Origin: Patescibacteria group bacterium
Lineage (GTDB): Bacteria > Patescibacteriota > Dojkabacteria > JAHIVN01
DNA: 64,000 nucleotides
Reading direction: 5' to 3'
Assembly: GCA_043816305.1 (NCBI GenBank)
Contig: JBDRHZ010000028.1
Location: 3,350 to 67,349, forward strand
Program-made: the position numbers
In this document: positions 12,001 through 15,000 of the stretch, one piece after another
How positions within the stretch are numbered: the stretch's first letter is position 1
Layout: each line of letters begins with the position of its first letter

Positions 12001-15000
12001 GGCTAAACAGTTATTCGGGATTTTATCAGCCCGTGAGTTCTTGACTGCTGTAGTAAAAAACGCATCATAAGCCGCAGAATCAAATGTGGCGTACCCGCCT
12101 TCGAAATATGTATCACCTTTTCCACCTGCTAAATTACTGTTACATATCATGTGCCCATCAACATACTCTACTTGATCAGGATCACAAGTAATTATCTGGA
12201 CATAGCAATCTCCTTTTATAAACCAATTTGGATCACTTGGAGGTGGCTGAAGCTTACAGTCTTCTTTTCTCCCCCAGTTGATACCAAGACAACCATTGGA
12301 CCCACATTCATTCATACTACATGCAAACTTATCATATGCTGGATCAAGAGTAAGTTGAATATCCCCTTTCCCGCAGCCATCCCACCAAGAAGAACCTGGG
12401 ACAATGTCGCTTTGATCTTTTCCGCAGGCATTAACAACCTGACCGGGGCCATAGGGCGCCGAAGCATCCACCTTTCCTACCAGTGATCTCATATAAGGGC
12501 TGTTTACGAGAACAATAACTATAAACCCCATCCCAAGGATAAATACTGAATATACATTCAGAAATTTCTGCATAAAAACAGGTAACTTAACTCCAGTATT
12601 CATTGATAAAAGAAATGAATTTAAGTAATAACATTATACCAAATGATTAGGTTCATTTCAAACTATGGGGCAATTCTGATATAATTCTACATATTGTAAA
12701 TATAATGTCAAGTAAGCGGATTCTTGTAAATTTATCGTAAATAATGTAATAATTTAAAAATGAATGAGAACTTCAATCCAATAAAACTTCTTTTTGCAAC
12801 AATCGGATGTCTGCTAGTATTCTCAATTCCTGTTATCGGTATCCTAGCTATATGGGGCTTTGAACCTAATGAAATAAAAGAGCAGATCACGAACTTCTTT
12901 CCTAAATCAGACGAGAAAGACGATAATTACAACTTCGAAATCCCTGCTGGCGAAGATGAATTACTGACCTCTACTATTATAAACGAAGGAAAGAAAGCAA
13001 AAGTTACACAAAAGGAAAACCCAGCGTCCTGGCTATCGATCCCTTCGGCAGACATAGAGGGAGAGATCGTATACGGTACAGATGGAGAATCTTTGCTACG
13101 GCAGGGTTTCTGGAATCATCCCATATCAATAGAGCCGGGTGAAATAGGGATCAGCGCTATCTTCGGTCATAGGAGATATCACCTCCCCCCGAATAAAAAT
13201 ACGTTTTACAATTTGGATATGGTGAAAGTTGATGACCGCTTAGAAGTTAAATTAAAAGATGGAACGTGGCTTGAATACAAAGTTGTAAATGTAGATGTTG
13301 TAGATCCGGATAAAGTTGACAGCATCATTACAGAGAAATCAGAAAGTTCAATTATCAAGCTGATTACTTGTACACCCTTGGGAACTGACGAGAAACGCCT
13401 CATCGTAACAGCAGAGAGAGTAATGTAGTCTGGTAAGTGGTAGATCTCCTTGAAAGGGAAGACTAGATGGTTGAATAGCTAGATAGTAACTTGATTGTCT
13501 GATTATCTATTTAACTAATTCTCTAATCAACTATTTTCCTTTCAAATCTTTTATCAAATCCCGGAGCTCAGCTGCCTTCTCAAACTCTAGCATATCGCTA
13601 TAAAGCAGCATTTGTACTTCAAGATCATTTAGAAGTTTCTTTCTTTCTTTGGGATTCAGAGCCGGGAAGGATTCTACCCTTTTGTGCAAGTCTTCGTCGG
13701 TTTTCTTCTCATCCTGCTTGTCATCAAGCCGTTCCAGCTGATCTTTGATCTCCTTTGTGATGGATGTTGGAGTAATATTGTGTTTTTCATTATACTTTTC
13801 CTGTACTTTTCTTCTTCTCTTGGTCTCCAGAACAGCTCTTTTCATACTTCCGGTAACTTTATCCGCATACATGATGACGTAGCCATCTTTGTGTCTGGCA
13901 GCACGTCCGATTGTTTGGATGAGACTAACATCGCTCCTCAGGAATCCTTCTTTATCCGCGTCAAGGATTGCAACTAAGGCAACTTCTGGAAGATCCAGCC
14001 CTTCTCTCAGTAGATTTATACCCACAACAACATCATACTTCCCGAGTCTCAAGTCGCGGAGAATCTCTACACGTTCAACAGTATCTATCTCGCTGTGTAG
14101 ATATTGCACTTTGATTCCGATATCTTTGAGGTATGCAGACAGATCCTCTGCCATTCTTTTGGTAAGAGTTGTCACTAGAGCCCGATTTCCTGATGAAGTA
14201 ACTGATTTAATTTCACCAATCAGATCATCTATCTGATTCAAACATTTCCTTTTCTTTAGTACATTTGCCTGTCTCTTCAGATTATTACTTTCCAGTTCCT
14301 TGACCAAGGTCTCTTTTTTATCAGTTTCTGACGGCCGTATCTCAATGCGTGGATCAAGCAAACCTGTTGGACGTATAAGCTGTTCGATTATCCCACCCAA
14401 ATTTTGAGATTTGAGATTTCCAGCCAGAGGCTGGCTTGCGTGCCGATCGGCATGGTCTGCCTTTGGCGGAGAATTTTGAGATTTTTTGATTTCATATTCA
14501 CTTGGTGTTGCACTTACATATACAGCCTGATTTATTCTTTTCTTAAATTCGGCAAACTGCAAAGGTCTGTTATCTAATGCGCTTGTCAGCCGGAAACCGT
14601 AATCTACAAGGATCTCCTTTCTCGCTCTGTCGCCGTTGTACATTCCACGAATCTGCGGAATAGTCATGTGAGACTCGTCAAAGAACAGAAGCCAGTCATC
14701 AGGATAGTAGTCGAGCAGGGTAGAGGGAGGCGATCCGGGTTTGCGATTCTCTATGTATCTGGAATAATTCTCAATACCCGAACAATAGCCAGTTTCCCTT
14801 AGCATCTCGATATCATAATTGACCCGCTGTTCGATTCTATGAGCCTCAAGATCACGACCCTGTTTTTTGAAGAACTTAATTCTTTCTTTCAAGTCATTTT
14901 CTATTTGCGGGATAGCAGCGATAAGTGCTTCGTATGGTGTAACAAATTGCTTCGCTGGGAAAATAGTAATTTCTTTGGGAGTATCCAAAACTTCTCCGCT

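Follow-up and report, generated by a model that had tools for sequence, protein, structure and literature searches.

The stretch analysed here, 64 kb of contig JBDRHZ010000028.1 from a Patescibacteria group bacterium (Dojkabacteria) and referred to below in its entirety as the window, carries a GC-rich palindromic insert in frame within its uvrB gene. We find that this insert is an enlarged, three-hairpin, partly decayed variant of a 30-nt element composed of two abutting hairpins. Tandem hairpins defined by their structure, precise gain or loss of 30 nt, a preferred junction, decay of individual copies and selection on reading frame are together best fitted by a non-autonomous mobile element moved by an enzyme encoded elsewhere, and we therefore regard the twin-hairpin element as probably dispersed mobile DNA of this kind, with the uvrB insert as one of its copies. 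A broader proposal, plausible and put forward more tentatively, is that the 30-nt twin hairpin circulates horizontally among many uncultivated phyla (the candidate phyla radiation (CPR)/Patescibacteria, Ignavibacteria, Bacteroidota, Omnitrophota and others) as an exact, largely stop-free module of 10 codons whose hairpins are kept by selection. If this is correct, a broadly distributed structure-specific mobilisation machinery, or a conserved hairpin-binding factor, would be implied, and such a module could reside within protein genes that are essential as well as within genes for structural RNAs.

The twin-hairpin core and its distribution

A collection of one genome per species (596 Gb) was searched with the strict pattern CCAAAGGCNGNNCNGCCTCTGGC, which fixes the inner stems and the loops (19 fixed bases), and at least 120 genomic loci matched, compared with about 4 matches expected by chance on a rough estimate. 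Among the 120 matches listed, 62 derive from CPR/Patescibacteria of many classes as judged from record titles, 8 from Ignavibacteria/Melioribacter, 9 from Bacteroidota including the cultured Marivirga aurantiaca, and 15 from metagenome-assembled genomes (MAGs) labelled Gammaproteobacteria or Pseudomonadota; Lentisphaerae, Omnitrophota, Zixibacteria, Elusimicrobia, Kiritimatiellia, KSB1, Margulisbacteria and Planctomycetota are represented as well, all taxonomic labels being given as deposited. Near-identical cores across so many phyla contradict an earlier, sequence-only reading of the window, which had suggested a lineage-specific element; further copies of the hairpin motif, for which it had proposed a search, are present at these loci in other genomes and at three sites in the window.

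The core has the general form YCNGCC-AAA-GGCNGR followed by YCNGCC-TCT-GGCNGR (30 nt), and position counts over 121 copies yield the consensus tt-TCCGCC-AAA-GGCGGA-TCCGCC-TCT-GGCGGA-aa, that is, two abutting hairpins with 6-bp stems and 3-nt loops, flanked by T-rich sequence on the left and A-rich sequence on the right. It is nearly a perfect palindrome, and its commonest variant is free of stop codons in all six frames. The stems covary: across 125 copies, pair 3:13 is Watson-Crick in 118 (55 expected) and pair 18:28 in 117 (54 expected), pairs 1:15 and 16:30 behave likewise, and each of the four Watson-Crick pair types is represented. Between one hairpin and the other, the same 125 copies show no covariation, so that the conserved unit consists of two separate hairpins. 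Less constrained matches additionally feature CAA, AGA or GAA in the first loop and TTT, TTG or TCA in the second, as well as arrays of three or four hairpins.

Carriage by phages or plasmids was considered and set aside, with 3 matches in the 2.9 million viral contigs of IMG/VR and none in INPHARED phages or PLSDB plasmids, the latter two being records from cultured organisms; the open reading frames (ORFs) near the three viral matches comprise head-morphogenesis genes and one large ORF.

In some genomes the core is part of a larger unit (L-numbers denote loci of about 8 kb from other genomes or metagenomes, and P-numbers homologous proteins). In Marivirga aurantiaca (L012) and a Cytophagales MAG (L024) it lies inside a longer conserved non-coding unit, with gacaaaaaggcggggagcgcg...gtggaag before the core and catcttttgtcccg...cgggacaaaag after it, which is 73-77% identical between the two genomes, has no Rfam match and may be a composite repeat or a new RNA. 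One Lentisphaerales MAG contains three copies (L041, L100 and L117) of another repeat, ctagcagcatggcggacctg.agcgaagcggatc.tG before the core and aagtccgaca.gctgctag after it, where the twin hairpin is held within a longer stem, suggesting that other repeat families can contain the core.

Copies in protein and RNA genes

The uvrB product of the window gives a 100% match to a Patescibacteria UvrB, is 60-84% identical to UvrB proteins of Candidatus Dojkabacteria and matches the solved UvrB of Bacillus caldotenax (PDB 2FDC) at E=7.6e-241. All features that the sequence-only reading had described for an in-frame GC-rich palindromic element are present in the gene: an exact 13-nt direct repeat AATTTTGAGATTT at 14400-14412 and 14472-14484 (spacing 72 nt) with a third, overlapping repeat TTTGAGATTT at 14410-14419 and, between the two 13-nt copies and read on the plus strand, the perfect hairpin CCAGCC-AGA-GGCTGG (14420-14434), the 12-nt palindrome TGCCGATCGGCA (14441-14452) and the one-mismatch hairpin TCTGCC-TTT-GGCGGA (14456-14470). 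The ORF stays open across the insert, encoding ...YVSATPSEYEIKKSQN-SPPKADHADRHASQPLAGNLKSQN-LGGIIEQLIRPTGLLDP with the upstream context EYEIKKSQN. The 72-nt unit delimited in that reading does not correspond to the presumed mobile unit, which is the 30-nt twin hairpin, here in its three-hairpin and partly decayed form (Table 1). The second hairpin in gene sense, H2, folds in RNA and DNA predictions alike, and H1 is not formed in the minimum-free-energy fold. The 21-nt module between them has no second copy in the 1.7 Mb of sequence searched and is missing from the uvrB copy of another locus, L001. A hairpin resembling that of the module, TGCC-TACC-GGCA, is located at 3195-3206 of the window in a GC-rich island about 50 nt downstream of a tRNA-Gly gene (3077-3147).

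The same element type had also been reported in rsmA and in a spacer, and both copies are recovered here. The rsmA core folds as two clean hairpins (fold z-score -3.05) between arms of the AAATCTC type similar to the uvrB flanks; the intergenic copy is devoid of heptamer arms and runs against the orientation of both neighbouring genes. A 15-nt hairpin pattern with at most 3 mismatches matches the window 6 times, compared with 0.52 expected and with none of 100 shuffles reaching 6, and a scan for family-type hairpins finds five, all of them at uvrB, rsmA and the intergenic site, the other matches being at background level. The uvrB and rsmA copies have nucleotides in common and are read in different frames (PPKAD..QPLAG versus PAKGWPASGG), so that their likeness resides at the DNA and not at the peptide level. 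At gathering thresholds, Rfam detects four tRNAs only in the window, with no described RNA family over the element.

Table 1. Element copies in the window, their component parts and the genes that host them (sequences in gene sense for uvrB and rsmA)
Feature	Coordinates	Strand	Remarks
uvrB coding sequence, 716 aa, host of the element	13531..15681	-	ORF and homology
uvrB 5' heptamer arm, AAAAATCTCAAAATTC	14471..14486	-	holds the left copy of the 13-nt repeat
uvrB hairpin H1, TCCGCC-AAA-GGCAGA	14456..14470	-	decayed; pair 3:13 is a C.A mismatch
uvrB middle module, 21 nt, CCATGCCGATCGGCACGCAAG	14435..14455	-	hairpin/palindrome TGCC-GATC-GGCA; not in the canonical 30-nt core
uvrB hairpin H2, CCAGCC-TCT-GGCTGG	14420..14434	-	perfect 6-bp stem
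uvrB 3' heptamer arm, AAATCTC AAATCTC AAAATT	14400..14419	-	holds the right copy of the 13-nt repeat; Tandem Repeats Finder (TRF): period 7, 2.4 copies
rsmA/ksgA coding sequence, second host gene	23260..24138	-	
rsmA canonical 30-nt core, CCAGCC-AAA-GGCTGG CCCGCC-TCT-GGCGGG	23482..23511	-	encodes LPAKGWPASG
rsmA copy 3' arm, AAATCTCAAACGCC	23468..23481	-	
rsmA copy 5' arm, AAATCTCGAATCTC	23512..23525	-	
Intergenic copy	1464..1492	+	H1 perfect, TCCGCC-AAA-GGCGGA; H2 decayed, TCGCT-TAT-GGCGA

Comparison with orthologues separates the hairpins from the linker that hosts them. In an alignment of 120 listed UvrB homologues and the window protein (P0001 being the latter's own entry), Dojkabacteria have anything from 0 to about 50 residues in the loop that separates YVSATPxEYE from GIxEQLIRPTGLLDP, a loop that often starts with LSKQSxSK, and a linker at this position is therefore old. 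Apart from the window protein, P0004 (76% identity), with FPPKADQPLAE, is the sole one of these homologues to have the hairpin-encoded peptide. The peptide is missing from the closest relative, P0002 (84% identity), and the window loop exceeds that of P0002 by 17 residues, or 51 nt, the exact sum of H1, the 21-nt middle module and H2. Such an alignment had been proposed as a check on whether the insert is lineage- or strain-specific. The earlier claim that the element interrupts a conserved UvrB segment stands for the hairpin-encoded part, which is an insertion, and falls for the loop as a whole, which is an old, length-variable Dojkabacteria linker. The locus encoding P0004 (L001) contains a plain 30-nt core, TCCACC-AAA-GGCGGA TCAGCC-TCT-GGCTGA, a few codons off the position used in the window and flanked by its own, different perfect 13-nt repeat, AAGAATGAAAAAT. 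For RsmA, LPAKGWPASG, exactly the 30-nt core, is missing as a clean gap of 10 residues from each of the 58 other orthologues that the alignment displays, and the RsmA encoded in L001 likewise lacks the 10 residues. Directly downstream of uvrB in L001 (4410-4721) we also observe a gene with 23S_rRNA_IVP and bAvd domains and no visible link to the element; proteins of this type accompany diversity-generating retroelements.

Relative to 2FDC, window UvrB residues 402-428 are without counterpart and fall between 2FDC residues 404 and 405, the element adding about 17-27 residues to the protein. In an AlphaFold model built from 52 sequences (mean predicted local distance difference test (pLDDT) score 86.3, predicted template modelling (pTM) score 0.81), pLDDT is below 50 at residues 413-427 and residues 403-430 have no secondary structure, and the helix (395-402) and strand (431-434) beside the insert are modelled with confidence. 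Mapping onto the structure, another check suggested beforehand, thus places the insert in a predicted disordered surface loop at the junction of helicase domain 1a and domain 3, and the host linker, already variable, lies between helicase motif III and the second RecA-like domain. The element is probably neutral in UvrB. A second insertion of about 30 residues (452-481; window positions ~14239-14328), located between 2FDC residues 427 and 429, is of a different nature: common to nearly all Dojkabacteria, not GC-rich and predicted to form two helices at pLDDT >90, it represents a structured addition of the lineage as a whole, in contrast to the hairpin insert.

Recurrent presence at a single site is seen in miaA, where eight CPR organisms (L057, L108, L242-L247) carry the element at one codon junction, after ...AKEF and before NG(A)EIIS. 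The copies differ in their stems (CCAGCC, CCCGCC, TCCGCC or TTCGCC) and loops, some being perfect 30-nt palindromes with CAA and TTG loops. In a distance tree of 120 aligned MiaA sequences, the seven carriers included are scattered, such that 94 of the 120 fall within the smallest split containing all seven, and the element is absent from the closest relatives of single carriers (17-23% distance); scattered carriers at one junction require repeated precise gain or repeated precise loss, and the miaA junction is an insertion or loss hot spot. Two pairs of filled and empty alleles (83% and 81% protein identity) are distinguished by the 30-nt core plus one codon between TTT and AAT, with no target duplication in either pair. 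Together, the allele comparisons show the core as what would be a precise 10-codon module (30 nt; 33 nt in some miaA copies), gained or lost at T-rich/A-rich junctions. Copies also decay, as is expected for selfish DNA: H1 is mismatched in uvrB, and H2 is degenerate in the intergenic copy and in the miaA copy of L242.

Some 45% of all copies lie inside long ORFs, where 47-50 are in sense and 10-13 in antisense orientation (binomial p about 1e-6 on 48:11). The sense copies use the three frames at 35:1:12 (chi-square p=7e-9), giving SAKGGSASGG, RQRRIRLWR and PPKADQPLAE, respectively, and the near absence of the Arg/Trp-rich frame argues that the element is translated and filtered by selection. 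Judging from this frame usage, genic copies appear to be translated and not spliced out; excision by IRE1-like twin-loop splicing, which nothing supports, was dropped because the frame bias shows translation. The absence of a TGA-containing variant from frame-0 coding copies is true by construction and is not used as evidence. Between co-directional genes the orientation bias is weak (21:13).

Many copies are found at protein termini, for example at the C-terminus of ribosomal protein L5 (L019), and others lie in RNA genes. In an Uhrbacteria locus (L112) a copy marks the start of a 134-nt expansion (6812-6946) of the RNase P RNA gene (6580-7044, minus strand), which otherwise fits the full bacterial type A model at 152 bits. 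The persisting genic copies are shown to occupy permissive places, namely disordered loops, protein termini and variable regions of RNA genes. An apparent insertion into a tRNA D-loop was rejected: L028 contains at 590-697 a second tRNA-Val(GAC)-like sequence, called as tRNA-Val(GAC) by ARAGORN once the core is deleted. The locus has an intact tRNA-Val(GAC) 300 nt upstream of it, and the copy that carries the core lacks a complementary acceptor stem and is probably a partial duplicate. Other apparent tRNA insertions were not confirmed.

Flanking repeats, mobility and competing explanations

One subfamily, to which the genic copies of the window belong, has A-rich AAATCTC-type heptamer repeats on either side of the core. 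When metagenomes were scanned for AAATCTC after the second hairpin, many loci with AAATCTC-like arrays emerged, typically of 2-5 units upstream and 1-2 downstream, and at the unrelated locus L216 the arms are nearly the same as those of the window uvrB copy, with AAAAAATCTCAAATTCTC before the core and AAATCTCAAAATTT after it. Because the same arms are found at unrelated loci, the 13-nt repeat in uvrB represents a recurring arm architecture rather than a chance stretch of uvrB that was duplicated. Taken alone, one 13-nt repeat inside 100 nt is only borderline improbable for 64 kb of AT-rich DNA (0.1-0.5 expected, an estimate), and its weight derives from the family context and not from its own statistics. 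The proposal of the sequence-only reading that it looks like a target-site duplication is doubtful, and it is probably not a simple one, given that AAATCTC-type arms recur in rsmA and at L216 and that the net insertion in rsmA and miaA is the core without duplication. The heptamer arms may be carried by the element, may constitute a preferred target or may be footprints of repeated 7-bp duplications.

Heptamer arrays without hairpins also occur in the window, as GTATCTG x4.3 in a spacer (17939-17968) and as GGTATCC-like and GTTACCA x7 units (36496-36521 and 36555-36605) at the 5' end of the ORF 36494..37291. Their period is that of the element arms, which hints that heptamer arrays are a separate genome feature with which the element associates.

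In the mobile-element model that we favour, the element would act as folded single-stranded DNA recognised through its hairpin structure rather than its exact sequence, with an enzyme supplied in trans that might most plausibly be of the IS200/IS605-TnpA or RAYT kind. The core would insert and excise precisely at T-rich/A-rich junctions, and surviving genic copies would be those filtered to permissive sites and to the two frames giving small or flexible peptides. An autonomous version, sought as an AAA-loop hairpin separated by 15-3000 nt from a TCT-loop hairpin, was rejected, the three cases being separate twin-hairpin copies with housekeeping genes between them; no full-length partner was found. 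Where L019 and L030 hold two copies each, what lies between them is ribosomal protein genes or nothing of note.

Several observations weigh against this model. No mobilising gene was noticed beside or between copies in the few loci examined (L019, L030, L053, L077, L107 and L123-L125), observations on this point covering the 64-kb window and the 8-kb loci. The set of matches is biased by a search pattern that fixes the inner stems and loops. IS200/IS605 ends normally carry guide and cleavage sequences outside their hairpins, for which 30 nt leaves no room, and to have the core nearly identical in different phyla is unusual for REP (repetitive extragenic palindromic) families or for families of miniature transposable elements with inverted repeats (MITEs). 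In orthologous copies the core is better kept than its surroundings: it is identical at 30/30 positions between the miaA copies of L057 and L108, whose flanks are 61-65% identical, and at 29-30/30 positions in two other pairs with flanks of 73-86% identity. This pattern fits recent independent insertion or a constraint on the hairpins, and could mean functional constraint. Finally, the 7-nt segments that border the core on its left and on its right agree at 6/7 positions or better in 10.7% of copies versus 1.0% of controls, an effect specific to length 7 and offset 0, and the flanks display period-7 autocorrelation; abutting 7-nt repeats fit a cut-and-paste DDE transposase with a 7-bp target duplication and are unexpected for IS200-like elements.

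These flank statistics, together with the perfect 13-nt repeat in window uvrB and the different one in L001, are what a MITE mobilised by a DDE transposase would explain, its 15-nt halves serving as terminal inverted repeats, with a 7-bp (or 13-bp) target duplication and with arrays generated by repeated excision and re-insertion at a preferred AAANNTC target. We nevertheless consider such a MITE unlikely. AAATCTC flanks both genic copies of the window and many unrelated loci, often with 3-5 units on one side, a recurrence in arrays which indicates that the arms travel with the element or reflect a pre-existing array; the rsmA and miaA insertions measure 30 (or 33) nt without duplication, an insertion of 30+7 or 30+13 nt would break the frame, and the terminal inverted repeats of DDE elements do not characteristically show covariation inside each half. 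The superior conservation of the core over its flanks would instead be accounted for if the twin hairpin, as RNA or DNA, were a binding or processing site of a widely conserved factor, maintained by purifying selection and spread by recombination. Compensatory stem changes between orthologous copies, including those of window and L001 uvrB, the sense-strand bias in genes and the near-identity of the core across phyla are in keeping with such a host-selected site. It is, however, a rather improbable explanation, as the host sites have no common theme (UvrB, RsmA and MiaA loops, the L5 C-terminus, the RNase P expansion, rRNA spacers and intergenic DNA), presence is patchy even in close relatives and decayed copies exist; the sense bias is weak outside ORFs and the genic bias may thus come from selection on the peptide.

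Two further explanations concern whether there is an inserted element at all. That the uvrB loop is an ancient lineage-specific linker or low-complexity stretch, with coincidental hairpins and repeat, could draw on the variable loop of all Dojkabacteria with its conserved LSKQSxSK-like start, and on two weakly similar KS-rich motifs that P0002 has where the two repeat copies lie. Confinement of the hairpin-encoded peptide to the window protein and P0004 among the listed UvrB sequences, recurrence of the same core in another frame in rsmA and at the loci found elsewhere, and covariation of the stems make it highly improbable, and for the hairpin part it is refuted, surviving for the flanking KSQN-type linker only. 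An assembly or sequencing artefact would be suggested by the predominance of MAGs among the matches, yet we give it next to no credence: copies have unique flanks, intact frames and compensatory variants, and they come from assemblies of many studies and assemblers. One carrier is a cultured isolate, Marivirga aurantiaca S37H4 (L012), and copies are also present on contigs of megabase scale and in the record of a full chromosome (L024, L040).

Known hairpin repeats and further observations

Literature searches on the core, the heptamer arms and the encoded peptides returned no published description of the element, only analogues, namely Rickettsia palindromic elements (RPEs), REPs and mitochondrial hairpin elements; unlike all three, the twin-hairpin element retains a single consensus in different phyla. 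With a length of roughly 100-150 nt and confinement to Rickettsia, RPEs are, by the descriptions of the two, set apart from an element of 30 nt with two independent short hairpins in many phyla. The passages on RPEs in PMC3733652 (citing Ogata et al. 2000) describe hairpin-forming palindromic repeats located in frame inside seemingly functional protein genes, as well as in RNA genes and spacers, and attribute to them a CGTC tag; no such tag is seen at the core ends in the core and flank consensus ttTCCGCC...GGCGGAaa. Both families have in-frame genic, RNA-gene and spacer copies and are presumed selfish, with survivors filtered by selection, and the RPE-type trait is evident here from the intact uvrB and rsmA ORFs and from the 47-50 sense copies inside long ORFs of other genomes. 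The likeness to RPEs drawn in the sequence-only reading is thus borne out for behaviour: the element behaves like an RPE but is probably not one.

Mitochondrial double-hairpin elements, GC clusters and hairpin repeats are described from Allomyces, yeasts and sponges (PMC2800124). They likewise are short GC-rich modules of AT-rich genomes with adjacent hairpins and tandem or multi-hairpin arrays, lie mostly in spacers and also in rRNA and protein genes, and appear mobile without a known enzyme. They belong to organelles and have lineage-specific sequences, whereas the twin-hairpin element belongs to free-living or episymbiotic bacteria of many phyla under one consensus, and the relation would be one of architectural analogy.

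REP/BIME/REPIN sequences, associated with RAYT tyrosine HUH transposases, are comparable as imperfect palindromes of 20-40 nt, often paired and recognised as single-stranded hairpins, and a short imperfect palindrome with a conserved stem-loop is evident here from covariation and folds. REPs are in some cases intragenic, notably in genes for replication and repair (PMC3733652). REPs have an unpaired GTAG (or CGTC) tag, species-specific families and head-to-head inverted dimers with spacers; the twin-hairpin element has hairpins abutting in tandem, an intragenic share of about 45% and a consensus that crosses phyla, and no unpaired GTAG tag beside the stem appears in the position counts of 121 copies. 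Miniature elements derived from IS200/IS605 (PATEs) resemble it in having hairpin ends on one strand, and may also do so in precise insertion and excision without duplication beside a short preferred sequence. Known PATEs are longer and carry guide and cleavage sequences outside the hairpins; a subset of twin-hairpin copies has 7-nt flanking repeats; no TnpA gene linked to the element was noticed in the few loci examined.

To our knowledge, in-frame selfish palindromes are textbook only for Rickettsia and some mitochondria. If the present interpretation is correct, they would extend to the CPR and several other phyla, at a size of 10 codons and with a sequence common to different phyla. The nucleotide core, together with SAKGGSASGG and PPKADQPLAE, would provide a searchable signature for tracing the mobilising enzyme by phyletic profiling and for studying horizontal DNA flow between CPR bacteria and their neighbours. 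The element would also account for a recurrent class of unusual insertions of 10 residues, of peculiar tails at N- or C-termini and of RNA gene interruptions seen in MAGs, and the cultured carrier Marivirga aurantiaca S37H4 makes experiments possible.

One further repeat in the window is associated with a tRNA gene. The 11-mer aagcggtggac at the 3' end of a tRNA-Gly (59081-59154, minus strand) recurs about 90 nt away (58989-59039/59080-59090), beside a GC-rich stretch with the perfect hairpin TCCCGC-TCT-GCGGGA (59009-59023), an arrangement that may represent a partial tRNA duplication or an old integration scar.

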